This document shows positions 46,177 to 59,113 of a stretch of 64,000 bases of DNA, in pieces. The position numbers and the translations under genes were made by a program. The DNA comes from Vulcanimicrobiota bacterium (lineage in GTDB: Bacteria; Vulcanimicrobiota; Vulcanimicrobiia; Vulcanimicrobiales; Vulcanimicrobiaceae). Position 1 is the first letter of the stretch. The number at the start of each line of letters is the position of its first letter. The notes below the pieces were generated by a model. The model ran no database searches, was not told where the DNA came from, and worked only from the letters and a program-made list of their open reading frames with translations. The stretch is from assembly GCA_963833095.1 (NCBI GenBank), contig CAWHWQ010000002.1, positions 224,001 through 288,000 of the forward strand, in the 5' to 3' direction.

Positions 46177-47360
46177 CCCCTCTCGTCGATCTCCTGTTTC
46201 TGCTCATTGGCATCGCCCTCGGCGCCTTCGTGATGTATTCGCGCCAGCGCGGCGAACGCGCGGCGATCGACGCGCTGCTCGAACGAGCCAAGAACGACCT
46301 GCGTGAATCCACGACTCATCAAGCGGGTGAACGCGTCGGGCAGATCGTTGCACCGATCGCCGAGCGTCTCACCGAGTTCGACCGCGTGGTACGCGAGATG
46401 GAGAACAAGCGCAGCGAGGACAGCGGCGCGCTGCGAGCGCAACTCGAACAACTCCTTGGCCGCGCCGACAAAATCGAAACGGCAGCCAACGCGCTCTCGA
46501 ATCAAACGTCGACGCTGGTGACCGCGCTACGCAGTCCGACGACACGCGGCAAGTGGGGCGAATTTCAGCTCCGTAACGTGGTCGAAAAGGCGGGCATGCT
46601 CGCTTACTGCGATTTCGACGAGCAGCAGACAATCGCGTTCGAGTCTGGTCGCGGGCGTCCCGACATGACGATCAAGCTGCCCGGCAACCGTTGCGTCTTC
46701 GTCGACGCCAAAGCTCCCACCGATGCGCTACAGGCAGCGCTGGAATCCGCCGACGACAACACACGCCGCGAGCTGATCAAGCGCCATGCGCGCGCCCTGC
46801 AAGATCACGTCGATGCGCTCTCCAAGCGCAATTACCAATCCAGCGAGGGGTCGGCCGACTTCGTGGTGATGTTCGTGCCGGGCGAAGCATTCCTGAGCGC
46901 CGCCTGCACCGAGAACCCGATGCTGATCGAATACGCGCTCGACCGCAACGTGCTTATCGCCGGGCCGCTCTCATTGATACCGCTCTTGCGCTCGTTCGCG
47001 ATGGGGTGGCAGGCGGTAAAACAAGAAGAGAATGCCAAGCGCATTGCGATGCTAGGCCGCGAACTGTACGAGCGCACCGCGCGCTTCGCCGATCGCCTCG
47101 TCAATCTTGGGCGTCATTTGGAACGTTCGGTCGGTGCGTACAATGAGGCGGTCGGCACGTACGAATCGCGTTTACTTCCGCAGGGTCGCAAACTCAAAGA
47201 TGAATCAGCGATCGGCGGAGAAGAGCTTCCCGAACCTAGCGTGATTGATCTTGCGCCGCGCACCGTCACCGCGCTCGACGCTGAACCGCGCGACCGCCGC
47301 GCACAGCGCGCGCCCGCCGAGCCGAATCTCTTCCAAAACCAAAACGATCAAGCCGGCTAA
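46173..47360 (+). CDS. rmuC: DNA recombination protein RmuC
   Basis: RGKWGE.QL, RPD..IKLP, VDAKAP, DFVVMFVPGE. Confidence 0.93.
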   Translation: MTPLVDLLFLLIGIALGAFVMYSRQRGERAAIDALLERAKNDLRESTTHQAGERVGQIVAPIAERLTEFDRVVREMENKRSEDSGALRAQLEQLLGRADKIETAANALSNQTSTLVTALRSPTTRGKWGEFQLRNVVEKAGMLAYCDFDEQQTIAFESGRGRPDMTIKLPGNRCVFVDAKAPTDALQAALESADDNTRRELIKRHARALQDHVDALSKRNYQSSEGSADFVVMFVPGEAFLSAACTENPMLIEYALDRNVLIAGPLSLIPLLRSFAMGWQAVKQEENAKRIAMLGRELYERTARFADRLVNLGRHLERSVGAYNEAVGTYESRLLPQGRKLKDESAIGGEELPEPSVIDLAPRTVTALDAEPRDRRAQRAPAEPNLFQNQNDQAG

Positions 47361-47977
47361 CGCAGCGCCGCGCGCTCGAGGATCGTATCGCCGTCGCGTA
47401 GTTCGAGGGCGTCCGCCGCGGGCGCGTGCTCGACAAAGAGTGAGCTGGTCGACCCCTGTGATTGCAAATCGCCCAGGCGCCTCGCCGCACTTCCATTGAC
47501 GGCGTAGACCGCGTAGTGCTCCGAACCGTTGGCTACAATAAAGAGCCAACTCCGATCGCGCGCGTAGATCACTTTCGCCGGCGGCGCGACGGTCGAGCCA
47601 ATCGGTGCGAACTGCGCGTGATTGAAATGGTTCGCAATCATGGCGACAAGCGCATGCTGCGTCTCTTGCGTGCGCAGATAACCCGGCACCATCGTGAGCA
47701 GACCCAGCACCAAACCGGCCGCAGCGGCCAAGGCAAAACCGGCATAACGCCGCACCCGCGGCGGCGCGCCGAAGCGCATGCGCCGGTCGAGTAACTCAGG
47801 TGTCGGTTCTGCGAGATCGCCGCGCTCGAGCGCGAGCAGCGTCTCTTCTGCCTCGCCGACGTGGCGTAAACATTGCATGCAGCTCGCGATATGGGCTTCC
47901 ACGGCCGCGCGCTCGCGCTCATCGAGTTCACCGAGCACGTAGAGTTCGGCCAGATCGCCGATATGCAGTTCAAACAT
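47357..47977 (-). CDS. anti-sigma factor (zf-HC2, RskA-like)
   Basis: YVLGEL..EAHIASCMQC, one TM, extracytoplasmic domain. Confidence 0.85.
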   Translation of the reverse strand: MFELHIGDLAELYVLGELDERERAAVEAHIASCMQCLRHVGEAEETLLALERGDLAEPTPELLDRRMRFGAPPRVRRYAGFALAAAAGLVLGLLTMVPGYLRTQETQHALVAMIANHFNHAQFAPIGSTVAPPAKVIYARDRSWLFIVANGSEHYAVYAVNGSAARRLGDLQSQGSTSSLFVEHAPAADALELRDGDTILERAALR

Positions 47978-48498
47978 CAGCCGTCACCAGGGAGCCTCGC
48001 AGCGTACGTAATGCAGCCGAGAGGCGGCTCTTGATTGTTCCAACCGGTTCGCCCAGCGCACTCGCGATCTCGGTGATGGGTCAGGCCCTGGTAGTACGCA
48101 AACTGAATCGTCTGCGCTTGCGCCGGCGGCAACGCATCAATCGCGCGCGCGATCCGCTCGCGTTCAATCGGGTCGGGCATCAACTCTTCGCCTTCCTCCG
48201 ACGGGGCCGCGCGACGCATCGCGTCGGATTGCCGCCCCACACTGCGCAGGCGTTCGAGGGCGCGGTTTCGCGAGCAGGTCACAAGAAACGCCTCGAGCGC
48301 GCCGCGCTCGGTTTGATACGCGTCACCGCGCCTCCAGAGATGGAGCATCACTTCGTGCACACAATCTTGCGCTGCAAGGCGATCCGCGAGCACCCGCAAC
48401 GCGGTCGTGTACATACGCGCGCCGAAGCGGCGATACGCTGCTTCGTACGCCCATGACTGCCGTTCTGCAAACGCGCGTTCGAGCGCAGATTCTCGCAT
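47970..48498 (-). CDS. ECF sigma factor (SigK-like; one frameshift near 48075)
   Basis: AQDCVHEV..LWR, RNRALE, LPPAQ..AYYQGLTH then EIASALGEPVGTIKSRL in the shifted frame. Confidence 0.88.
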
Positions 48499-48504
48499 TG
48501 CCTC

Positions 48505-49389
48505 CTAGCCCAGTGGATGTTGCTCAATGCCTGCCGTGCCGTTATCGAGGCGCACCGTCCGATAGCCGATCGCGTGCAGTAATTGATCGTGGGGAAGGGT
48601 CAGCGGACCGGGATTCGGCGCCGTGCCCGGTTGTGGCTGCGGATACGCCGTCGCGGTCGCGGATGCAAAGTGGATGTTGCCCTCGACGTGAGTGACGATC
48701 TGGTGGATATGCCCGTTGAGCACCGTCACGTGGTCGAAGCCGGTGAGCATCGCGAGGGCGCTTGCACCGTCCTCGGTCGTCCAGCCCCACTGCGGAAAAA
48801 GCGCGTAGAGCGGCACGTGGGTGAAGACCACGATCGGCGTCGACTGGTACTGCGACTGAAGATCCTTCTTCAGCCACGAGAGCTGGTCATTGCCCATCAA
48901 GCCCATCTTCTCGAAATTGAAGACATTGAGGAGCACGATGTAGTGCACGCCGCCGTCGTCCCACGAAGCCCAACCGCCCGGTTCGGCCTCTTTGATCCCA
49001 AAGTTGGTGCGATAGGTCGCAAAGTCGTTGCCCAGCACATCGTGCTCGCCGGGAAGCGCAATTAGCGGTGCTCGGAGTTGACTCAAAATTGCGCGCGCAT
49101 CGTCGAATTGCTGTTGCGTAGAGAGATGCGTAATGTCACCGGTGTGCACGACGAACTTCGGCTGGACCGGCATCGAATTGATCGCATCGACCGATGCCTT
49201 CAACGTGGCCGAAACGTCGGGGTTGGCGGATTGATGAAAGCCGATGTGGCTGTCGCTGATCTGCACGAATTGCGTGGCCGGTGCGGCGTCGGCGAGCGCG
49301 CGGCCAGTGAAGATGCCGGCACCGGAGAGCGTGTAGGCGATACCGCTGCCCGTCCAAGCAACGTGGCTCAAAAAATCGCCGCGTCTCAC
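48505..49389 (-). CDS. Tat-exported metallophosphoesterase
   Basis: MRRGDFL; QISDSH, HTGD, PGEHD, HVP, GHIH. Confidence 0.92.
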   Translation of the reverse strand: MRRGDFLSHVAWTGSGIAYTLSGAGIFTGRALADAAPATQFVQISDSHIGFHQSANPDVSATLKASVDAINSMPVQPKFVVHTGDITHLSTQQQFDDARAILSQLRAPLIALPGEHDVLGNDFATYRTNFGIKEAEPGGWASWDDGGVHYIVLLNVFNFEKMGLMGNDQLSWLKKDLQSQYQSTPIVVFTHVPLYALFPQWGWTTEDGASALAMLTGFDHVTVLNGHIHQIVTHVEGNIHFASATATAYPQPQPGTAPNPGPLTLPHDQLLHAIGYRTVRLDNGTAGIEQHPLG

Positions 49390-49718
49390 GATTGCCCATC
49401 CTTTACGGTCACGGTGCCTTTCATGAAAGGATGCAACTCACAGAAGTAGTGATATGTCCCGGCGTGCGTGAACGTATGGCTCCAGGATCCGTCCGTGTCC
49501 ATGCCTTTCGAGTCGAACGACCCGTCGGTCGCGGTGACGGTGTGAGCATCGTCGTCGTTGTTGACGAACCGTACCGTATCACCGGTGTGGATCGTGATGT
49601 TTGGCGGCATATACGCATCGCCGTGGAGATGCACGGTGACGACGGGACTCGCCGCGGCTCCGTGCGCAAGGACGGGCGCGAGCGCGAGAAGCGCGAGGCC
49701 GATCAGAAAGTGTTTCAT
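49386..49718 (-). CDS. cupredoxin (amicyanin/plastocyanin-like)
   Basis: Signal peptide; N.DDDAHTVT, YFCELHPFM type-1 Cu ligands. Confidence 0.93.
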   Translation of the reverse strand: MKHFLIGLALLALAPVLAHGAAASPVVTVHLHGDAYMPPNITIHTGDTVRFVNNDDDAHTVTATDGSFDSKGMDTDGSWSHTFTHAGTYHYFCELHPFMKGTVTVKDGQS

Positions 49719-49753
49719 ATCCGGTATATGCCGCCCGAGCGCTAACGGTTCGC
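49719..49753 (-). promoter_or_regulatory. ECF-type promoter motif, copy 1
   Basis: GCGAACCG-N10-GGCGGCATATAC-N5-ATG. Confidence 0.75.
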
Positions 49754-50128
49754 CGAGGCCGGATTCGCCTGATCGTTGGGCGCCATCCAGGCCGAACCGT
49801 CGGCAAACAGGACCGATGCGACGTTGCAGCTGGCCTCGTCCCCGTACATTTCCCCTCGGAATGTGTGTGCGATAGCGACGCCCGGCGAGAAAGTGCCGCG
49901 ATCGACGATCGTCGTCTTCTTGCCGTCCTCGGAAACGTCGAATGCGACGGAAGAGATCGGCGTCGGCCCATTGTTGACGAACCGGATGTTTAGAAGGGTG
50001 CCGAAGACTTGATACGTTGGGGCATCGCCCGACGAGGACTCAGCGACCTCAGTATTGACTGAGCAGGTTGAGATCTGCACGGGGTTTGTAAGCGCAAGCG
50101 CAAGTGTGACTGCTGGTAGTGTAATCAT
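49742..50128 (-). CDS. secreted hypothetical protein
   Basis: Short signal; I.F.N, DRGTFSPG, C.V..V.FADGSAW. Confidence 0.75.
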   Translation of the reverse strand: MITLPAVTLALALTNPVQISTCSVNTEVAESSSGDAPTYQVFGTLLNIRFVNNGPTPISSVAFDVSEDGKKTTIVDRGTFSPGVAIAHTFRGEMYGDEASCNVASVLFADGSAWMAPNDQANPASANR

Positions 50129-50167: not shown

Positions 50168-51079
50168 CTATGCCACGACCGGAAAAATTGCGATGAACGA
50201 CGCGCCTTTTTCGCGTTCGTCGAGTGCAAGCGTCCCCTCATGCGCGCGCGCAACCCAATGCGCGATTGCGAGTCCGAGCCCACTTCCACCCGCGCTGCCG
50301 CTGACGAAGCGCTCGAACAAACGCTCGCGCAACTCGGGAACGACGCCTTCACCGTCATCGCTCACCCGCAAGGTGGCGCGGCCGGCGTCGACGCCGGTCG
50401 CCACTGTGACGCACGATGCCGCATGACGTATCCCGTTTTCGAGCAGATTGCGGAGCAATTCTTGCAGACGCCGCGCGTCGCCGTCGACGATCGCGGGCTC
50501 CAGCTTTACGACGAGCTCGATGTCACGCTCGCGCGCGCGTGCCTCGAGTTCACGGACACACCGCTGCGCGATTGCTGCCAAATCGACCGGCTCACGTTGG
50601 AGTAGCGCGGGTTTGGGTGAGCGTGCCAGCGTGAGCAGATCGCCCACCATGGCGCTTGCTTCGAGCGCTGTCTTGGCAATCGTATCGAACATATCGTGCA
50701 ACTGCTTTGGATCTTGGTCCCCGCGCGCCGCCTGCGCGACGGAGGCGATGGTCGCCAGCGGCGAACGCAATTCGTGGGCAGCATCAGCAATAAACGCGCG
50801 CTCGCGCTCTTGGGCCGCAAACAGGGGGCGCAGCGACAGTTGCGCGAGACCCCACGCGGCAAAGCCAACCAGGACGAGCAGCGGCACGTCGGCCGCGACG
50901 ATCTCAAGCGCGACCCGGCGCATGTCCTGCGCGTAGACGCTTGCGCCCTCCGGCGTCGAAAGCGCCGGAAGAAGTAAGCTGTGATATTGAGTCGCCAGCA
51001 CGAAGTAGAGCGCGAAGGATGCGGCCGCAAGGACTACCGTGAAGATCGCGAGATACGCTCCGACCAGCCGCGCGATCAC
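50168..51079 (-). CDS. sensor histidine kinase with a very short extracytoplasmic loop
   Basis: Two TMs, DAAHELRSPL H-box, NLLENG, DDGEG, GSGLGLAI. Confidence 0.93.
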   Translation of the reverse strand: MIARLVGAYLAIFTVVLAAASFALYFVLATQYHSLLLPALSTPEGASVYAQDMRRVALEIVAADVPLLVLVGFAAWGLAQLSLRPLFAAQERERAFIADAAHELRSPLATIASVAQAARGDQDPKQLHDMFDTIAKTALEASAMVGDLLTLARSPKPALLQREPVDLAAIAQRCVRELEARARERDIELVVKLEPAIVDGDARRLQELLRNLLENGIRHAASCVTVATGVDAGRATLRVSDDGEGVVPELRERLFERFVSGSAGGSGLGLAIAHWVARAHEGTLALDEREKGASFIAIFPVVA

Positions 51080-51744
51080 TTCTCGAACTTATACCCGACG
51101 CCCCACACCGTGGTGATCACGTCGCCGGCACCGGCTTTTTTCAGTTTGCGTCGTAGCTGGCTGACGTAGACATCCACGATATTGCTCGACCCTTCGAACT
51201 CATAATCCCAGATGCGCTCGAGCAAGTCCGCGCGGGTAAACGCAATTCCCGCGTTGCGAGCAAGAAACTCCAACAGGCGAAACTCGGTAGCACCCAGATC
51301 AATCGCTCGTCCGTCGAAAGCGACGCTTCGCGCCGACACGTCGACCACCAGAGGCCCCGCAGTGACGCGATCGATAATCGGCCGCGGCGCGCGCCGCGCG
51401 ATTGCGCGCAAGCGTGCAACGAGCTCCTCCTCGGCAAACGGTTTTACGAGATAGTCGTCGGCCCCGCAGTCCAAACCGGTGACGCGATCTTCGATACCAT
51501 CGCGTGCGGTCAACATCAAGATCGGCGTGGTGATACTGAGCGCGCGAGCCCGGCGCGCAATCTCGAAGCCATCGCGATGAGGGAGGCCAACGTCGAGGAT
51601 CGCCGCGTCGTAGGCGTCGCGCAAGAGAAAATCGAGGCCCGCATCGCCGTCGGTGGCAATGTCTACCGCGTACTTGCGCCGTTCGAGCATCGCACGCACC
51701 GCGTTTGCAACCGGCAGACTGTCCTCGACGACAAGGATGCGCAT
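51076..51744 (-). CDS. OmpR-family response regulator
   Basis: RILVVED, LMLTAR, GADDYLVKPF, SNIVDVYV..LRRKL, TVWGVGY. Confidence 0.95.
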   Translation of the reverse strand: MRILVVEDSLPVANAVRAMLERRKYAVDIATDGDAGLDFLLRDAYDAAILDVGLPHRDGFEIARRARALSITTPILMLTARDGIEDRVTGLDCGADDYLVKPFAEEELVARLRAIARRAPRPIIDRVTAGPLVVDVSARSVAFDGRAIDLGATEFRLLEFLARNAGIAFTRADLLERIWDYEFEGSSNIVDVYVSQLRRKLKKAGAGDVITTVWGVGYKFEK

Positions 51745-51748
51745 AGAT

Positions 51749-52870
51749 TCAGAGATTCGGCGGCCAGGGAAAAGCTACTGTTAGCGCTCCCCCAAAGCTG
51801 CCCGTGCCCCCGATCGTCTGCACTTGCTGGAACAGTATGCGCGCATGCTTGAACAGCATGAACGCGCCATAGTATGTGACGTCCCGCGTAATGATGGGAT
51901 TCTGGTAGGCATCGTACCGCACGGCGAGATACGCGTGATCGCCGTCACCGACATAGTATTTCGCGCGCAAATAGCCGCCCGAGCTCCCGACAAGCGTACC
52001 GAAGCCGTCGGCATCGAAGTCACGCCCAAACCACTGCTCGCCCTGGAGTTGAAGCTGGCCGGCCGCAAACGATGTCCAAAAGCCGCCACGGGTGTATCCA
52101 TCGTCGAAGGGCGCCTTGCCGTTGAGTACGATCCGGCGCGTGCCTTCAAGACCCTCCACGCCGAAGACGAACGGCCCGCTGAGGACATGCGCGAAGAGCC
52201 CAACTTCGGGTGTTTGCGCGGACGTCGTTTCCCCGGTTGGAACCGGAGCGCCGCCGTACGCTGCGCCTTTGAACTCTCCCGTGTCCAAAACCGCATCGAC
52301 GACGGCGTTTCCGATTGTGCGCTCCACCTGCGCTCCGTAGCGTGGTGAAGACAGTGGCAAATCGTTGAGGCCTACGTGCGCGCCGTAGTAGCCGTATTGC
52401 TGCAAATCGTCTAAGCGTTGCCCCGGCGACTGTGACAGCGGGAGTTCGAAAAGGCCGGCGCGATAGAGCGTCTGCGTATGTCCGTTGTACGTCGCAAGAT
52501 AGCCCAAATACAGGCCTGCGGGACCGCCCTGCGCGCCCAAATTGTAGTGCACGAACGCACTGATCTTGCCGAAATCGAAGTTGCTGAGCACGATGCCGCC
52601 CGGGGTGTAGCGCGGGCCGTTCACCGGATCGACTTGATATTGCAGCTGGTAGCGAATCGCTATTCCGGTCGTTCCGTGGCGCGGCAGCGGCAGTTGATAG
52701 CCGTGCTCGCGAAAGGAGCGACCGAACGCATTGAGTTCGGGGATGACCGTGTGGCATTGTTCGCATTGGAACTGATAGCGCTGCGCATAGAGCGGGATCG
52801 CGGACGCAGGTTCGGCGCACGCGAAACCCGCGCACATCGCTACGATCGCGATGAGCAGTTTACTTGGCAA
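51749..52870 (-). CDS. Cyc2/ExtI-like monoheme cytochrome c fused to a beta-barrel
   Basis: Signal ..PASA then IPLYAQRYQFQCEQCHTVIPELNAFGRSFREHGY (CxxCH, PxL, GxxFxxxGY), followed by alternating aromatic beta-strands. Confidence 0.75.
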   Translation of the reverse strand: MPSKLLIAIVAMCAGFACAEPASAIPLYAQRYQFQCEQCHTVIPELNAFGRSFREHGYQLPLPRHGTTGIAIRYQLQYQVDPVNGPRYTPGGIVLSNFDFGKISAFVHYNLGAQGGPAGLYLGYLATYNGHTQTLYRAGLFELPLSQSPGQRLDDLQQYGYYGAHVGLNDLPLSSPRYGAQVERTIGNAVVDAVLDTGEFKGAAYGGAPVPTGETTSAQTPEVGLFAHVLSGPFVFGVEGLEGTRRIVLNGKAPFDDGYTRGGFWTSFAAGQLQLQGEQWFGRDFDADGFGTLVGSSGGYLRAKYYVGDGDHAYLAVRYDAYQNPIITRDVTYYGAFMLFKHARILFQQVQTIGGTGSFGGALTVAFPWPPNL

Positions 52871-53315
52871 CGATCACCCCTCGCATGCCGCCGCTGTAGT
52901 GAAAGAAGCAGCCGAAGAAATACGTGCCGGGCGCATCGGCGATGAAGACGCCCGAGGATTGTCCGGCTTGGAGCGTTCCCGCTCCCCAGCTGCCCGAGAT
53001 ATCCGCGGTGCTACTGGGCTGTAAGGCCGTCGACGAGAACGGCGATTGCGCCGGGAAGGTGGTCGCGCCCGGAATCGCCGTGACGGTGTGCGAGGTGTTG
53101 TCGACGTTGACGAAGCGCACGCCCGATCCAACCGGGATCGTGGCGACTTCGGGCGAGAAACCAAGGCCAGTCCCGCCCGGCGTTGTCTGCGCGCCGAATG
53201 CCGCGATGCTAACGTCGACCGTCGTAATGCTTGTCGCACCCGAACCGCCGCTTGCACCGGTAAGCTCGCCACCCGCAGTACATCCGCTTAGTAGCAGCAG
53301 CGCTAGCCACCTCAT
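52860..53315 (-). CDS. cupredoxin lipoprotein (type-1 copper)
   Basis: LLSG-C lipobox; NTSHTVT ... GCFFHYSGGM ligands. Confidence 0.88.
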   Translation of the reverse strand: MRWLALLLLSGCTAGGELTGASGGSGATSITTVDVSIAAFGAQTTPGGTGLGFSPEVATIPVGSGVRFVNVDNTSHTVTAIPGATTFPAQSPFSSTALQPSSTADISGSWGAGTLQAGQSSGVFIADAPGTYFFGCFFHYSGGMRGVIVAK

Positions 53316-53818
53316 GAATGTTGTCTCGGCAACATGGTGCCGGCCACTCGGCCGTCGCTGCCGAGCACCGTGATGAAGGTGGTGTGCGCTTCCGCGTACC
53401 CATCTTTATCGCGCGCTACTCCGACCCCGAACTCGTGCATCAACTGATGCACCGATACGACATCACCGCCGGCGATGAGCCAATACGAAGGGTCGGCATC
53501 GAACGTGTGGGCAATGCGCACGAGATCGGCGTGCGTATCGCGTTCGGGGTCCAGCGTAATCGTCAAAAAGCGCAGATTGCCGTGCTCGCTTTTCTGGCGC
53601 TTCGCTGCAGCGGCAACCTGAGATTCGATAAGTGGACATACACCGTCGCAGTGCGCTGAAATGAACGTGACGATGAGCGGGCGCCCGCGTAGGTCATCGA
53701 GGGTGAAGTGTCGCCCGAGTTGATCGATCAGCTCCGGTGAGCGCTGAGCATGCTGTCCGCCGCGCGCCGCGGCGACCGCAACGATCAGTGCCGCGGCGGC
53801 GGCGAACATGCTGCGCAT
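53312..53818 (-). CDS. SCO1/SenC copper chaperone
   Basis: LIDQLG, CDGVCP (CxxxC), ITLDPERDT, conserved His (AHTT). Confidence 0.9.
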   Translation of the reverse strand: MRSMFAAAAALIVAVAAARGGQHAQRSPELIDQLGRHFTLDDLRGRPLIVTFISAHCDGVCPLIESQVAAAAKRQKSEHGNLRFLTITLDPERDTHADLVRIAHTFDADPSYWLIAGGDVVSVHQLMHEFGVGVARDKDGYAEAHTTFITVLGSDGRVAGTMLPRQHS

Positions 53819-53819
53819 G

Positions 53820-54392
53820 TTAGCGCGGATTCCGGCTATGGATGTACGTGATGGGCGGCGCCGTCGGGCCGGATGTGGCGGCCGCAGGGAGCGCTGTGCT
53901 CCATGTCCCGCCGAAGCTCGTGATGCCGTTTCCGTTGTCCTGTCCCGAAGCAGAGTCGCCGCTGTACTCATAGAGTGGTGCGCCGCTATTGGCCCATTGC
54001 AGCGTTCCGTCGCCGCGCGTGATGATGGTAAACGACGTTCCCGCTGGGACAGTGGTTCCGGCAGGTGCCGCGTACGGCGGCCACACGCCGGTGCACCCAT
54101 TTGACGCTGTGCAATTCGAGACGCCGCTTGTATCGGCGCCGAACACGTAGAGTGTGTGTCCGTTCTGGCCTACGAGAACCATCGTGCTACCGACCGTCGC
54201 CGTTTGGGGCATGCTCGGCGGGTTGGTCGCTGCGGTCGTCGGGGCCGTGGTTGGCGACGTAGTCGGTGCCGTGGTCGGCGCAGTCGTCGCGGGTGTTCCC
54301 GTAAACGGCGTACCGCTGCTGCTTCCGCCACCACCGCAGGCTGCAAGCGTCGCGACAAGCGCGAATCCTGCGAATAAAGCTGCGCGTTGCAT
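53820..54392 (-). CDS. COG4315-type (Lipoprotein_15) lipoprotein
   Basis: LAA-C lipobox, TTAP repeats, GHTLYVF..C...C..VWPP, Q...G.PLY..GD..G..NG. Confidence 0.85.
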   Translation of the reverse strand: MQRAALFAGFALVATLAACGGGGSSSGTPFTGTPATTAPTTAPTTSPTTAPTTAATNPPSMPQTATVGSTMVLVGQNGHTLYVFGADTSGVSNCTASNGCTGVWPPYAAPAGTTVPAGTSFTIITRGDGTLQWANSGAPLYEYSGDSASGQDNGNGITSFGGTWSTALPAAATSGPTAPPITYIHSRNPR

Positions 54393-54445
54393 ATTAAAAA
54401 GAGCCTCCAATGAAGTGTTGAGGCTCGCAGCGTACCGGTCAGTTC

Positions 54446-54461
54446 TGAAGAAAGTGTAAAG
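54446..54461 (-). promoter_or_regulatory. candidate OmpR-family binding box, copy 1
   Basis: CTTTACACTTTCTTCA, 11 nt before a TACGCT -10-like hexamer; 15/16 match at 57330. Confidence 0.6.
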
Positions 54462-54473
54462 TCGTTTTACGGA

Positions 54474-55286
54474 TTACGGCGCGGCGATCGCGTTGCGCAT
54501 TTCAATCGCTAGACCATGAAGCGCGGGATCGTCGCTTGCATCGGCGGCAGCGCGGTCGAAGCACGAGCGAGCAGCCGGGCGATCCCCCTGATGGAGTAAC
54601 ACCGTACCAAGTGCAAACCGCGCTCGCGCGTAGTTTGGGGCGAGCGCCAGTGCCGCTTGAAATTCGCGCAGCGCGTCGGCGTAGGCGCCGGCGCGTACCT
54701 CGGTGAGGCCGAGATCGTAGTGCGCGACTGCATACTGAGGATCGTTTTGCAAGAGCTTGGAAAAATCGTCACGCGCCGCGCCGAGGTCACCGCTTTGCAG
54801 CGCGACCAGGCCGCGCGCATAGAGCGCGCGTGCCGAGTCGGGCGCAAGCGCAACGAAACGATTGGCCACCGTACGAGCAGCGGCCAGATCGCCGCGGCTC
54901 ACGTCGACGGCGATCAAGTTCGCCATAGCAGCAAGAAAGCCGGGATCGAGCGCAATCGCTCGCTCGAACGAACGAGCCGCATCGCCGTACGCAGCACTCT
55001 GTGCCTGCGCTATTCCTAAATCGTATGCCGCGGTCGAACCTTGCGGTTCGCGCGGACCCAGCGCCAGGATGCGCGTAAACTCCGCGCTTGCATCGTTCCA
55101 CCGATGCGCGTCGAGCGCAGCAAGGCCCAGATGAAAGCGTTCGATGATTTCACGCTGCACCGCTTGCGCGTGCATCGTTGCGGGCGAGGTACTGCGGGGC
55201 AGCGGCGATGCACCGTACGTTTGCGCAACGGCCGGGCTCGCAACGAACGCAAACGCGGCCGCGATTATAAACCAACGCGGACGCAT
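54474..55286 (-). CDS. secreted tetratricopeptide-repeat protein
   Basis: Signal peptide; repeated A.Y.LG....A...F..A..L.P units. Confidence 0.88.
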   Translation of the reverse strand: MRPRWFIIAAAFAFVASPAVAQTYGASPLPRSTSPATMHAQAVQREIIERFHLGLAALDAHRWNDASAEFTRILALGPREPQGSTAAYDLGIAQAQSAAYGDAARSFERAIALDPGFLAAMANLIAVDVSRGDLAAARTVANRFVALAPDSARALYARGLVALQSGDLGAARDDFSKLLQNDPQYAVAHYDLGLTEVRAGAYADALREFQAALALAPNYARARFALGTVLLHQGDRPAARSCFDRAAADASDDPALHGLAIEMRNAIAAP

Positions 55287-55292
55287 TGGAAT

Positions 55293-55544
55293 CTAGCGCC
55301 GTAACCCGAGTGGAAGTTCCGCGCTCATCGCGTTCTTCGATGCGGCGGCTTGTTCGGGACGGCACAACCATCCGACGCGGCCGTCTTCGTTGATCGCACC
55401 GAGCAGAGGAGCCTGTGATGAAGGCACGAGCATGTCCGAACTTGCCGTTAGAACACCCGCCTCGACATAGGCGTAGCGCAGGCTTACTGCCGCGAGGAGC
55501 AGTAGACCCGCCAGGGCCAATCGAGCAACGAGGCGGCTGAACAT
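55293..55544 (-). CDS. small membrane/secreted hypothetical protein
   Basis: Hydrophobic N-terminus; TATACT 7 nt upstream of ATG. Confidence 0.55.
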   Translation of the reverse strand: MFSRLVARLALAGLLLLAAVSLRYAYVEAGVLTASSDMLVPSSQAPLLGAINEDGRVGWLCRPEQAAASKNAMSAELPLGLRR

Positions 55545-55577: not shown

Positions 55578-57335
55578 ATGAAGCGCTCGTGTCTCGCATG
55601 GGCTACTAAGAGTGTGCTCTGCGCATTTTTGCTACCGCTCCTGGGCGCCGCACCGGCGCCGCTGGTCGTCGGGAGCGTGCGCGACCAAGAAGGCGCCCCC
55701 ATTGCTGGAGCACGGGTGCGGTTGGTCGGTTCGCCGGCATCGGGCGTCCAAACCGCTGCCGACGGCACCTTCGCGATCGAAGGAGGCGGGAACGCGGTGC
55801 AGATCCGCTGCGATTACTGCCGCCCGACCCAGGCTCCGGTTGCAGCTGACGGCACAGTTACCGCCGTGGTGCAGCGCTACGACGCAGTTCGCTTGGAGGG
55901 GCCTAGTCCAAGCGATGTGCGCAGTCTGCCCTACACCCATGCAGAATCGGACGTCGCGTTAACGCCGTTCGTCGTGCTCGAGGAGAGTACGAACCCGCTC
56001 CTCGGCGCCTCGCTGCGCGACCGCAGCGTCACCACTATCGGCGGATTGCTCGTGCTCGACGGTGTGCCGGATTACAACAGCGCGGTCGGGCTCTCGACGT
56101 TTTCGACGATTTCGTATGACAGCGCCGCGAACGTCGAGGTCGAACGCGCACCTCAGGGATACGAGTACGGCGACATCGCGAATTCGGGAACGTTTTCGAT
56201 CGACACGATCGGAGGCACCACGTCGTTCGCCGGGGGATCGAACACGATTGCTACGCTGGATGCAAACGGCCTAGGAGCCGGCTATTCTTCGGCTCCGCTT
56301 GACACGCGCAGTCGCATCGCCGCGCAAATTTCGGTTCCGGTGACGAATGCGTCGGCGCAAATTGCCCTCGCCAGCGGATCGGGCAACGTCAGCGGCGGTA
56401 ACGACAATCCACTGCAAAGCGCGTTCTCATCGCTTCACCTCTCCTACGAGCGCACGGCCGGGACCGACCTGTACGCCAGCTTTATCGCCGACCGCGGCAC
56501 CGATGCGTACACCTCTCCACACTACGGGTTGGATGACGCGTGGTCCGACGTTGACGCGCGGGTCGGCGTGCGCTCGCACGCTGTTGTTGCGCCCTTTGCA
56601 GAGATCGACGCACGCGAAAGCAGCGGCTGGTATTGGTCGCCGGCGCAAACACCCTATGTTGCAGGCGTCATCGATCAGCTGCGCGCCTACGCCGGCGTCA
56701 GCGCGAACCTGCCGTGGTATTCCGCGACGGTCGCGTACGGCGCCGACGCAATCCACTTCACCAATCGCTACCCCGGTGGAGCCAGTAGCGCGCTAGCCGG
56801 GCACGACGCGTCGGCATCGATCGACGTGCATCCAAGCCCCGTCTGGGATCTGGCCGCAAGCACGAGTTCGGGATACGTGCTCCAAACCGTCGTCGGCTAC
56901 TACGAGGCCAGCGACAACGACTATCCGCCCTCAAACCTGGTCAGTACCGACGAACTCGATCTCACGTTCCACGACTTGGCGCGTCTGCGCATCGGCTTGA
57001 CGACCTTCGGCACGCGCAGCACCTCAGGCGTCAACGATGCCAGCACCGGTGCACAGCTCGCCTGGCAAATCGCGCCGACCGTGAGTCTGCGCACGTGGTG
57101 GCTCGACGTGAATACGCATACCGCAGGTTCTGCGAGCGTCGGTTCGGCGTGGTTGACGGCCGTCAGCGGTGTCGTGCGCATCGATGTGATCTGGCGGCGC
57201 GATTTGCTCGATCTTGCCGGTGATGCACATCTCGATGGATCGATTAGCGGTCCAATCGGCGTCCGCACGCATTGGTTTGCACAAACCGAACAATTTGCAC
57301 ACACGCGCGTAACAGACGTAGGTATTCGCCTTTAG
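55578..57335 (+). CDS. carboxypeptidase-regulatory-like domain plus degenerate TonB-receptor-like beta-barrel
   Basis: GSVRDQEGAPIAGARV..T.ADGTF; LVLDGVP plug-like motif; terminal beta-strand VGIRL. Confidence 0.65.
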   Translation: MKRSCLAWATKSVLCAFLLPLLGAAPAPLVVGSVRDQEGAPIAGARVRLVGSPASGVQTAADGTFAIEGGGNAVQIRCDYCRPTQAPVAADGTVTAVVQRYDAVRLEGPSPSDVRSLPYTHAESDVALTPFVVLEESTNPLLGASLRDRSVTTIGGLLVLDGVPDYNSAVGLSTFSTISYDSAANVEVERAPQGYEYGDIANSGTFSIDTIGGTTSFAGGSNTIATLDANGLGAGYSSAPLDTRSRIAAQISVPVTNASAQIALASGSGNVSGGNDNPLQSAFSSLHLSYERTAGTDLYASFIADRGTDAYTSPHYGLDDAWSDVDARVGVRSHAVVAPFAEIDARESSGWYWSPAQTPYVAGVIDQLRAYAGVSANLPWYSATVAYGADAIHFTNRYPGGASSALAGHDASASIDVHPSPVWDLAASTSSGYVLQTVVGYYEASDNDYPPSNLVSTDELDLTFHDLARLRIGLTTFGTRSTSGVNDASTGAQLAWQIAPTVSLRTWWLDVNTHTAGSASVGSAWLTAVSGVVRIDVIWRRDLLDLAGDAHLDGSISGPIGVRTHWFAQTEQFAHTRVTDVGIRL

Positions 57336-57345
57336 ACTTTCTTCA
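57330..57345 (+). promoter_or_regulatory. candidate OmpR-family binding box, copy 2
   Basis: CTTTAGACTTTCTTCA, 23 nt upstream of the ATG at 57369. Confidence 0.55.
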
Positions 57346-57368: not shown

Positions 57369-57764
57369 ATGAAGCAACTTGCACTTACTCTCACGCTCCT
57401 TGCCGCGTTCGCAGTCCCCGCGGTGAGTCAAGAGCCTTCCACAATAAATATACCCATGCATGCGCTCAACGGGAGCGGCGAAGACGGTATGGCAACCGTC
57501 ACTCAGGGAACCGGCGGAATCAACGTCGTCGTCAATCTATCGGATGCATCTGATGTGTCGCAACCAACGCATATTCACATCGGGACGTGCGGCGCGATCA
57601 ACAAATCGCCGGAATACGCGCTACGCGACACGGTCGGCGGCAAAGGCGATTCGTTCGTGGCAGGCGTCAACCTCAGCGACCTGCTCAAAGGGCACTACGC
57701 GATCAACGTGCACAAGAGCGGCACGGATCTTGGCACCTACGTCTCGTGCGGAAATATCCGCTAA
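57369..57764 (+). CDS. secreted CHRD/Cu,Zn-SOD-like His-motif protein
   Basis: Signal peptide; QPTHIHIGTC, AINVHKS, VSCGNI. Confidence 0.75.
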   Translation: MKQLALTLTLLAAFAVPAVSQEPSTINIPMHALNGSGEDGMATVTQGTGGINVVVNLSDASDVSQPTHIHIGTCGAINKSPEYALRDTVGGKGDSFVAGVNLSDLLKGHYAINVHKSGTDLGTYVSCGNIR

Positions 57765-57768
57765 GAGA

Positions 57769-58311
57769 TCACTGCTTGTTTTCGAGCGTCTTGAGTGCCG
57801 CGATCGTGTTGGCTACGTGCTCGCTTGGATCCAGCGACGTGTAGCTATACACGATTGTGCCGTTCTGCGCGATCACGTACGACGTCCGATTGGCGTACTG
57901 CGGCTTCACCGCGAGAATCGAATCGTACGCCTTTTCAACTGCCTGATCGGTGTCCGCAGCGACGGCAAACGCGCTCCGGCATTCGCTGACCGAGAACTTC
58001 TGCAACGTGTCGAGCGCATCGTGCGAGACGCCGATCACCGTCGCATTCAAAGCTTTATATTGATCGATCGCGTCGGCAAAGTCGTGCGCTTCGATCGTGC
58101 AGCCCTTGGTGAAGGCCGCGGGATAGAAGTACAACACGACCGGCCCTTTTTTGAGCGCGTCGGCGAGATTAAACGTAAAGACATTGCCCCCGAGCGTCGC
58201 TTGTAGCGTGAAATCGGGCGCCTTGGTGCCGTTGGAAAGCGCGGCAAGCGCGGGAGCGCTCATGCAGACGGCAGCAAGCAAACCCGCGAGGAGGGATCGA
58301 TAAAACATCAT
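57769..58311 (-). CDS. exported peroxiredoxin (BCP/PrxQ)
   Basis: Signal peptide; APDFTL, VVLYFYPAAFTKGCTIEA. Confidence 0.92.
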   Translation of the reverse strand: MMFYRSLLAGLLAAVCMSAPALAALSNGTKAPDFTLQATLGGNVFTFNLADALKKGPVVLYFYPAAFTKGCTIEAHDFADAIDQYKALNATVIGVSHDALDTLQKFSVSECRSAFAVAADTDQAVEKAYDSILAVKPQYANRTSYVIAQNGTIVYSYTSLDPSEHVANTIAALKTLENKQ

Positions 58312-58363
58312 ACACCCATTGCGCCCGACATGGGTTTTTGCAAGTGCGGAGAACCGTCGGGCC

Positions 58364-59113
58364 ATGTCTGAATGGATTCCCTACGAGACCGGCGATGCCC
58401 CTTCGCTCGAGGTTTCGATCGACGTCGACTTCGACGGTGATGATGACTTTAAGAAATCGCACCCGTTCCTGATACGAGTCAGCATCACGCACTTCGCCGT
58501 CGACGACGGTGGACAACCGACCGAGGCTGCCGCCGAAGAGCTCTTCGACCTCGAACAGCGCCTGGAATCCGCCTGCGAAGAAAATGATGCCGAGTCCGTC
58601 TGCACGATCAGCGGCTCGGGCAAATACGAGATCTTTATCTATGCCGCCGGCATGGAAGCGGCCGCTTCCCTGAAGGAGGACGCGGCGACCGCATCATTCT
58701 CTATCGACGTCACCGTCGATCGCGACGACGCATGGAAAGCCTACGACCGCTATATTCTGCGCGGCGAGGAGCTCGAGGACGCGCGCGACGCCGATCAAAT
58801 CGCACAAATGGACGAGGCAGGCGAGGATCTCACGCAAGAATTCGACGTCACGTTCGATTGCGAAGTTTCCGAAAAATCGGAAAGTGCGGCGAAACGCGCC
58901 TTGAATGACGCCGGCTTTGAGACACCGGCTGACGTCTACGACGGCGTCATTCCGGCGACACGCACGATGCTCGTGACCGTTGAGAATCTCAAAACGGCGC
59001 GCACGCAAGTCCTGCGCGCGATTGCGCCGTTTGACGGGACCTACGACGGTTGGGGCATCGACCCCGATGAACCTGAAGACGACGAAGACGACGACGAAGT
59101 CGAAGAAGAGTAA
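58364..59113 (+). CDS. acidic DUF695/RraB-like protein
   Basis: G.PT....L..LE..L, D..W..Y, G.YDGWG; very Asp/Glu-rich. Confidence 0.7.
   Translation: MSEWIPYETGDAPSLEVSIDVDFDGDDDFKKSHPFLIRVSITHFAVDDGGQPTEAAAEELFDLEQRLESACEENDAESVCTISGSGKYEIFIYAAGMEAAASLKEDAATASFSIDVTVDRDDAWKAYDRYILRGEELEDARDADQIAQMDEAGEDLTQEFDVTFDCEVSEKSESAAKRALNDAGFETPADVYDGVIPATRTMLVTVENLKTARTQVLRAIAPFDGTYDGWGIDPDEPEDDEDDDEVEEE

Follow-up and report, generated by a model that had tools for sequence, protein, structure and literature searches.

The rus operon of Acidithiobacillus ferrooxidans encodes Cyc2, rusticyanin, Cyc1 and an aa3 oxidase, keeping the genes of a c-type shuttle and an oxidase together with that of the porin. 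We analyzed a stretch of 64,000 nucleotides (nt; the window) from a Vulcanimicrobiota (Eremiobacterota) bacterium (contig CAWHWQ010000002.1), in which a Cyc2-like monohaem cytochrome-porin (the haem-porin) is encoded next to a type-1 cupredoxin lipoprotein; coordinates below are positions within the window, and the operon genes are all on the minus strand. As in the rus operon, a haem-porin and a type-1 copper protein are encoded together; unlike it, the locus has a lipoprotein cupredoxin with a C-x2-H-x4-M loop, plus SCO, TPR, receptor and two-component genes, and its host, unlike A. ferrooxidans, is not a known lithoautotroph. Genes for a c-type shuttle or an oxidase of the rus type were not found among the window genes at 40–64 kb or among the shared neighbours of related loci.

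The haem-porin has in common with A. ferrooxidans Cyc2, Mariprofundus Cyc2PV-1 and Leptospirillum Cyt572, as these are described, a signal peptide, a single N-terminal CxxCH, a PxL motif and a 16-strand OprO/OprP-like barrel (PMC8406198, PMC13741234), and OprP has been named as a template for the Cyc2 barrel (PMC8406198). Compared with these tested proteins, it reads AxPxYAQRY (AxPxFAQRY in its family) in place of AxPxFAR[QK][TY], measures 373 instead of 439–556 aa, and stands on its own lineage-specific branch with a tethered cupredoxin partner and a dedicated regulator box. The authors who defined the family call the function of divergent Cyc2 members uncertain (PMC8406198). Cyc2 homologues serve as markers of iron oxidation, and two papers base inferences of Fe oxidation in Eremiobacterota on such hits. 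An earlier note on this DNA, made from the letters alone, knew of neither a metal-oxidizing conduit nor a redox-coupled copper acquisition system in this lineage; however, Cyc2-like genes or predicted Fe oxidation have been reported for Eremiobacterota (PMC8357290, PMC13594681). The phylum is not named in the main text of PMC12442345 or of PMC10654088. In the literature outside subscription journals, no paper was found that deals with the pair, with the box or with the regulation of the paralogues described below.

Other described systems resemble the locus in part. Geobacter ExtI, to which the earlier note related the haem-porin, likewise carries an OprP-like porin annotation and has been proposed to admit oxyanions, but it is described as having no haem-binding motif and lying within a multihaem cytochrome cluster (PMC5877670), whereas the haem-porin has a CxxCH and no multihaem cluster around it; the proposed kinship is not supported. 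Synechocystis CopRS/NrsRS (RppAB), as described, also combines an OmpR-family regulator, best matched here by the NCBIfam families RppA/RppB, with TTCA-type direct repeats and a regulator gene inside its own likely target operon (PMC4182526). In contrast to that system, the NCBIfam scores here are under the cut-off, no efflux targets were seen among the box-linked genes examined, and the kinase lacks a periplasmic sensor domain; the half-site of the box is like that of the CopR site TTCAT-N4-5-TTCAT, but its period is 11, versus 9–10 for CopR (PMC4182526). The site, efflux targets and periplasmic sensor of a CopRS-type copper resistance regulon were not found here. PcoAB candidates, as described, also pair an outer-membrane barrel with a copper redox protein and raise the same question of detoxification versus energy (PMC5566968); here, unlike PcoAB, the barrel itself bears a haem site, and as copper partner it has a single-domain cupredoxin without an O2-reducing center.

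The conserved haem-porin and cupredoxin pair

The six operon genes encode a COG4315 (PF03640) lipoprotein (53820–54410, likely start 54392), a SCO/SenC copper chaperone (PF02630; 53312–53830, likely start 53818), the cupredoxin (PF00127; 52860–53315), the haem-porin (51749–52870), an OmpR-family response regulator (51076–51744) and a histidine kinase predicted to span the membrane with two helices (50168–51079), the last two identified by Pfam. All lie where the earlier note had placed its tightly coupled run, with intergenic gaps of 1, -4, -11, 4 and -4 nt if the SCO start is taken as 53818. Neighbourhood counts by tblastn over 80 related loci, short contigs included, detected the cupredoxin in 78, the regulator in 78, SCO in 77 and the kinase in 76 of them, and since these four are kept in 76–78 of 80 loci, the gene arrangement is not a product of chance. 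The expected conservation thus held for these genes but not for the COG4315 lipoprotein (17 of 80). The inventory of six genes was correct but incomplete, because it had missed three upstream genes: those of a TPR protein with a signal peptide (54474–55286, minus strand, Pfam TPR; 75 of 80), of an 83-aa small membrane protein (55293–55544, minus strand, motif LLGPI..GR.GW.C; 70) and of a divergent TonB-dependent-receptor-fold protein of 585 aa (55578–57335, plus strand; 72).

The slot before SCO is filled by COG4315 in 16 of the 80 loci, none of which has an extra cupredoxin match, and extra cupredoxin lipoproteins stand upstream of SCO in 53, and a locus may hold as many as four cupredoxin genes; the COG4315 lipoprotein therefore occupies the slot held by extra cupredoxin lipoproteins in most relatives. 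A second cupredoxin (49386–49718) does lie 449 nt past the kinase, as noted earlier, with a 128-aa open reading frame (ORF) between, but it belongs to a separate metallophosphoesterase–ECF (extracytoplasmic function) sigma module and adjoins the operon in 9 of 80 loci; the match in L006 is the first cupredoxin mislabelled, so the true count may be 8.

The cupredoxin carries a lipobox Cys (C12) and the type-1 ligand set His...Cys-x2-His-x4-Met (H76, C136, H139, M144). The four ligands and the lipobox Cys do not vary among 95 aligned rows, a set pre-selected for the Cys-His-Met loop; among 99 unselected scored loci (100 examined) the loop is intact in 97, and of the two that fail, one looks frameshifted and the other is an overlapping frame. 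This supported the suggested tie between the haem-porin and the adjacent cupredoxin. In 20 further loci spanning the class, a cupredoxin stands upstream of the haem-porin in every one. Nine loci have another gene order, with cupredoxin and haem-porin paired in all nine and no other operon gene adjacent; in all five genomes checked of this order, the regulator, kinase, small ORF and TPR genes form a block of their own, located ~20–25 kb from the pair in four of them. Among the loci examined, SCO, the receptor and the extra lipoproteins are attached only in the source genome's family. The conserved core, kept across the class, is thus the cupredoxin lipoprotein with the haem-porin, and SCO is an accessory, because it is not beside the pair in any of the nine loci of the other order. 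Since pair and signalling block stand apart there, the old system is made up of two units, the pair as output and a signalling block of four genes. Three families of the class have ortholog-level matches (E<1e-40) in 119 of 168, 2 of 3 and 12 of 16 of their genomes, respectively, five unpublished genomes being excluded from these counts, which makes the haem-porin near-core; in the remaining 58 genomes of the phylum there were weak matches only, in 6.

Judged from its sequence, the haem-porin begins with a signal peptide, followed by AIPLYAQRY-QFQ-CEQCH-TVI-PEL. The CxxCH (C36/C39/H40) is invariant in 80 of 80 relatives and in 95 aligned rows, and P and L of the PxL motif (P44-E45-L46), which begins four residues after CxxCH, are invariant in the same 95; between the A of the pattern in the earlier note and the first Cys we counted six residues, not the four given there. 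Its length clears the FeGenie filter for Cyc2 (>=365 aa). The structural model has 16 long strands, in keeping with a Cyc2 barrel (predicted local distance difference test [pLDDT] 70, predicted template modelling score 0.70), with the haem region poorly predicted (pLDDT <50 at residues 18–47). In the fold search, OprP came first by VIA-align (Z 22.5, root-mean-square deviation 3.3, 296 residues aligned), tied with other 16-strand porins, as expected from the barrel that had been suggested; no Cyc2 entry was among the matches listed. Pfam, NCBIfam and PDB sequence searches named no family for the haem-porin, and NCBIfam returned no Cyc2 family for 48 of its distant relatives. A profile search with the haem-porin collected 2439 proteins at E <=0.001, and 39 long proteins among the best 150 matches share the canonical consensus AxAIPxFARKY...CxTCH...PxL. 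hhalign aligned the haem-porin with a profile of these 39 over 319 columns at 100%, barrel included, a match that is not fully independent because the 39 had been chosen through the haem-porin's own profile. The Cyc2 pattern thus stood as to barrel fold, CxxCH, PxL and full-length profile match, but not as to the strict motif AXPXFAR[Q/K][T/Y], which reads AIPLYAQRY here and IPIFAQRY in the family consensus. Because this upstream motif differs, we classify the haem-porin, on its sequence, as Cyc2-like and not as Cyc2 in the strict sense. Its closest relatives are all Eremiobacterota (Vulcanimicrobiota) wherever the record gives a name.

Several features of the wider family may be recorded here. 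A D-x-[DN]-x-D-G loop at residues 284–288 of the haem-porin (52007–52021, minus strand; D284 in 95 and D288 in 94 of 95 rows) may form a cation site on a predicted outer loop. In P0188 and P0196 (~1040 aa each), a Cyc2-like domain shares one open frame with methyl-accepting chemotaxis domains, and in L119 (1090–3985) CHRD, CHASE3/HAMP and Cyc2-like genes form a run under a box; these arrangements could reflect a sensing role or read-through. P0224 and P0258 are Cyc2-like proteins with one or two additional C-terminal cytochrome c motifs, the cluster of P0258 being named Vulcanimicrobiaceae. On a Methylocystis plasmid (L182:6872–10642), a Cyc2-like gene with the canonical motif, annotated as hypothetical, is followed by three c-type cytochromes.

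The TTYA-N7-TTCA promoter box

Comparison of relatives revealed a promoter box that is new here, whereas a sigma-70 scan found no promoter at the locus. The box is a direct repeat, TTYA-N7-TTCA, with a TAnnnT hexamer 10–11 nt later, and the locus holds three copies. Predicted promoter P1 (55552–55582, minus strand), before the small membrane protein, has a TTCA-N7-CTCA box at 55582–55568, TATACT 10 nt on and an ATG 7 nt further, predicting a leaderless transcript; the divergent TonB-fold gene has its start codon and ribosome site within the same stretch, so that the two overlap. Predicted promoter P2 (54429–54460, minus strand), before the COG4315 lipoprotein, consists of TTTACACTTTCTTCA (54460–54446) and a hexamer 11 nt later, and is predicted to drive the lipoprotein, SCO, cupredoxin, haem-porin, regulator and kinase genes. 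The third box, TTTAGACTTTCTTCA (57331–57345, plus strand), was located by a matrix scan before the gene of an exported CHRD-like protein, with no TAnnnT hexamer at 10–11 nt. In relatives, a box follows the TPR stop codon in 68 of 85 loci.

With a matrix made from P1/P2-type sites, the three sites of the locus ranked first genome-wide, P2 having the best score and TTTAGACTTTCTTCA the second-best; two of these three are close to the matrix training set, and the CHRD site is the new one. The number of sites with a hexamer in the genome (3, versus 2, 1 and 0 in shuffles) is not telling by itself. An independent test came from the other gene order, where box and hexamer precede the pair in 8 of 9 loci (5 of 2752 windows in the background). 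In the same order, the box lies inverted 72–78 nt upstream of the regulator start in 5 of 5 genomes (background 3 of 1774). The strict matrix-like pattern had no match in the five genomes of this order, whose boxes have a different spacer. The exact 15-base pattern occurs in 43 of 121 genomes (a tally that includes two unpublished ones), with 2 control matches in all. From these positions, we infer that the regulator binds the TTYA-N7-TTCA box.

To describe the genes linked to the box elsewhere, we hand-chose 40 stretches away from the operon, covering 41 of 84 listed box sites. The gene after the box encodes a hydrophobic N-terminus in 33 of these 41 cases and a lipobox in 16, compared with 603 of 2183 crude control ORFs. 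The genes concerned encode beta-propeller lipoproteins, a cupredoxin, COG4315, CHRD, a peroxiredoxin and a further Cyc2-like paralogue. Genes for an oxidase, a c-type shuttle, an efflux pump or phosphate uptake (pst) were not seen after the 41 boxes.

A phosphate-porin (Pho) reading of the locus was rejected, as the pstS promoter has different, TTAAGGC-type repeats and is absent from the matrix matches listed. These 11-bp repeats upstream of pstS (L194:2600–2660, on contig C4 of the source genome, G000) are a candidate pho box for the lineage.

Cyc2-like paralogues and possible roles of the pair

The source genome holds two further Cyc2-like paralogues. One (G000:C5:279023–281313; L084:7024–9314) is divergent from the gene of a periplasmic trihaem cytochrome c; of all arrangements in the genome, this one most resembles a conduit. 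The other (G000:C6:12781–13865; L085:7782–8866) lies before yceI and has upstream of it TTAGG-N4-CCTAA, a palindrome that we take to be a DtxR/IdeR/MntR site; the genome encodes one DtxR-family gene. The only other perfect copy in the genome (G000:C1:356591) belongs to an NRAMP–SCO–SCO operon. When the first site in each of 30 genomes was considered, the palindrome lay before NRAMP in 9 loci, before a multicopper oxidase gene in 6, before a Cyc2-like paralogue in 5 and before a TonB-dependent receptor gene in 1, the remaining loci pointing to unrelated genes or none; it likely marks an Fe or Mn starvation regulon. A quick tree of 80 rows, which contains no tested Cyc2 sequence, placed the cupredoxin-linked copies on one branch (support 100) that follows host taxonomy and the palindrome-linked paralogues in a weakly supported sister branch (support 80). 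The three Cyc2-like copies thus differ in regulation or context: one under a likely metal-starvation box, one under the two-component box and one divergent from a trihaem cytochrome.

The reading that we prefer, while giving it slightly less than an even chance, is that the pair forms an inducible one-electron relay at the cell surface, which oxidizes a dissolved metal for uptake or protection and not for growth. Its substrate would most likely be Fe(II), with Cu(I) and Mn(II) as further possibilities. A single haem and a single-domain type-1 copper site both carry out one-electron transfer. With the haem domain predicted on the barrel's periplasmic side, a metal ion would be oxidized at the pore and the haem would hand the electron to the cupredoxin; SCO may load or buffer copper for this and the extra cupredoxins, and the electrons could finish at a CuA oxidase encoded elsewhere. 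The kinase, small membrane protein and TPR protein would respond to a cue from the envelope or from a metal, upon which the regulator would activate TTYA-N7-TTCA promoters, driving other exported proteins as well. Metal handling is favoured because the haem-porin is near-core in soil bacteria, the operon and regulon hold no respiratory genes and the paralogues are co-regulated with metal importers; the regulon data lean the same way. If it is correct, "iron-oxidizer" labels for Eremiobacterota become doubtful. A wider proposal, which we consider rather unlikely, is that Eremiobacterota turned the Cyc2 fold into haem-gated metal-handling porins, none of them for lithotrophy, with some paralogues in a DtxR-type regulon beside NRAMP and multicopper oxidases and the operon copy placed on a tethered cupredoxin under four-part signalling. 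In that case, Cyc2 hits in an abundant soil phylum would mark metal acquisition instead of energy-yielding iron oxidation. The split of the paralogues by regulation offers a direct test of Cyc2-like function in a non-lithotroph, with defined promoters, a minimal unit of two proteins and a cultured member of the phylum, which is the only one in culture and is described as having an outer membrane (PMC9758169).

A number of observations weigh against the metal-handling relay. The tested Cyc2 proteins are described as Fe(II) oxidases of lithotrophs (PMC8406198, PMC13741234), and Eremiobacterota, at up to 89% in mine tailings, are predicted to oxidize iron (PMC13594681). Energy gain is possible because the genome encodes two haem-copper oxidases. 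The operon haem-porin is not itself under the DtxR-like box, so the argument for uptake comes from the paralogues; the assignment of the palindrome is our presumption, and its genome-wide counts are no higher than the control, its positions alone being informative. Many box-linked genes encode beta-propeller lipoproteins, for which no tie to metals is known; this would fit a general envelope regulon. The kinase shows neither a sensor domain nor a metal-binding motif, its loop of ~25 residues being without class-wide His, Cys or Met. As to a sixth haem ligand, no His is invariant across the class: all 6 rows from the other order have Arg in place of H108. Models of tested Cyc2 proteins, as described, likewise show one haem ligand (PMC13741234).

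Some of these points would suit a minimal energy conduit resembling Cyc2–rusticyanin, in which Fe(II) or a small reductant passes electrons through tethered cupredoxins to a ba3- or aa3-type oxidase and supplements heterotrophy; we regard this as possible but improbable on balance. The fold is that of tested Fe(II) oxidases, the type-1 sites are intact, a locus may carry as many as four cupredoxin genes, and one of the two COX1 loci has a CuA-type subunit II. The c-type maturation gene (PF01578) was not found in the source genome, which is 80.7% complete, but is present in 40 of 40 relatives. Abundance in acidic tailings, as reported (PMC13594681), points the same way, and D154/D155 in the long third loop recall, by resemblance without alignment, D137/D138 described for Acidithiobacillus Cyc2, but Thr stands in place of D155 in all 6 rows from the other order. 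Neither the operon nor the box-linked genes examined include an oxidase or a c-type cytochrome, the strict Cyc2 motif is lacking in a protein that is near-core in soil bacteria, the paralogues fall into a likely metal-starvation regulon, and no RuBisCO was found in the incomplete genome. Copper acquisition or storage is less probable still: the TonB-fold receptor or the porin would import copper, SCO would distribute it, the cupredoxins and COG4315 would store or buffer it, and the haem would only set its redox state. One locus does combine SCO, one to four cupredoxins, a CHRD protein and a CxxC receptor, with a regulator nearest to RppA and heavy-metal families and a half-site like that described for CopR (PMC4182526); however, in the other order the pair has neither SCO nor the receptor next to it, both NCBIfam matches fall under the cut-off, the repeat period is not that of CopR, OprC is not singled out among the receptor folds, the kinase has no periplasmic sensor domain, and most box-linked genes elsewhere do not encode copper proteins. 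To an envelope or redox-stress regulon, in which haem-porin and cupredoxin would buffer or sense redox state at the surface without any metal as substrate, we assign the lowest probability. Its exported members, including peroxiredoxin and CHRD, the sensorless kinase with two accessory proteins and the open frames joining Cyc2-like and chemoreceptor domains would agree with it, whereas the strict conservation of copper ligands, haem motif and SCO and the box shared by paralogues and metal transporters count against it.

Signalling proteins and neighbouring genes

The system also includes the small membrane protein, the TPR protein, the divergent TonB-fold protein and the CHRD protein. The regulator is nearest to RppA and heavy-metal families in NCBIfam, its best match being RppA at 203.8 bits, below the cut-off of 250. 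C61 of the small membrane protein is kept in 71 of 71 rows; the gene sits between kinase and TPR in L096 and L097, and in the other order a remote look-alike, judged by eye, does so in 5 of 5 genomes. The protein, which had no usable match in Atlas, is likely a kinase accessory, and the TPR protein, whose gene comes after regulator and kinase in the same 5 of 5 genomes, likely belongs to the signalling module.

SCO has a CxxxC (C61/C65) and H149, all three kept in 77 of 77 rows, and C100 and C106 of the COG4315 lipoprotein are conserved in 17 of 17. The AlphaFold model of the TonB-fold protein (pLDDT 91.5) comprises an N-terminal carboxypeptidase-regulatory-like domain with a conserved CxxC (C78/C81, present in at least 90% of 71 rows), a plug and a 22-strand barrel; Foldseek listed PqqU, BtuB and YncD at the top and OprC among many others. 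The idea of a Slam-like exporter made of TPR protein and barrel was dropped, since the barrel has a plugged 22-strand receptor fold. The exported CHRD-like protein (57369–57764, plus strand) has a weak match to PF07452 (E 0.011) and no PDB sequence match, and carries an HxH, a further H and two Cys, motifs that presumably resemble those of Cu superoxide dismutase. It is likely a regulon member, and a CHRD look-alike follows a box in L119.

An exported peroxiredoxin is encoded at 57769–58365 (minus strand), with no box seen upstream in the window; a box precedes its relatives in L134–L136. On the other side of the operon, the module of the second cupredoxin (47357–49718, minus strand) comprises this amicyanin-like protein, a metallophosphoesterase, an ECF sigma factor and an anti-sigma factor, and the ~9 loci of 80 in which it adjoins are all close relatives. 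The ECF sigma ORF (47977–48498, minus strand) diverges from its relatives after about residue 140, in a region 4 frameshift that may be an assembly error or real; it is intact in L001, L004, L008 and L022. The 128-aa protein between the second cupredoxin and the kinase (49742–50128, minus strand) is exported and contains two Cys, and the genome encodes four paralogues of it; TATACT stands directly before its start, suggesting a leaderless promoter of its own.

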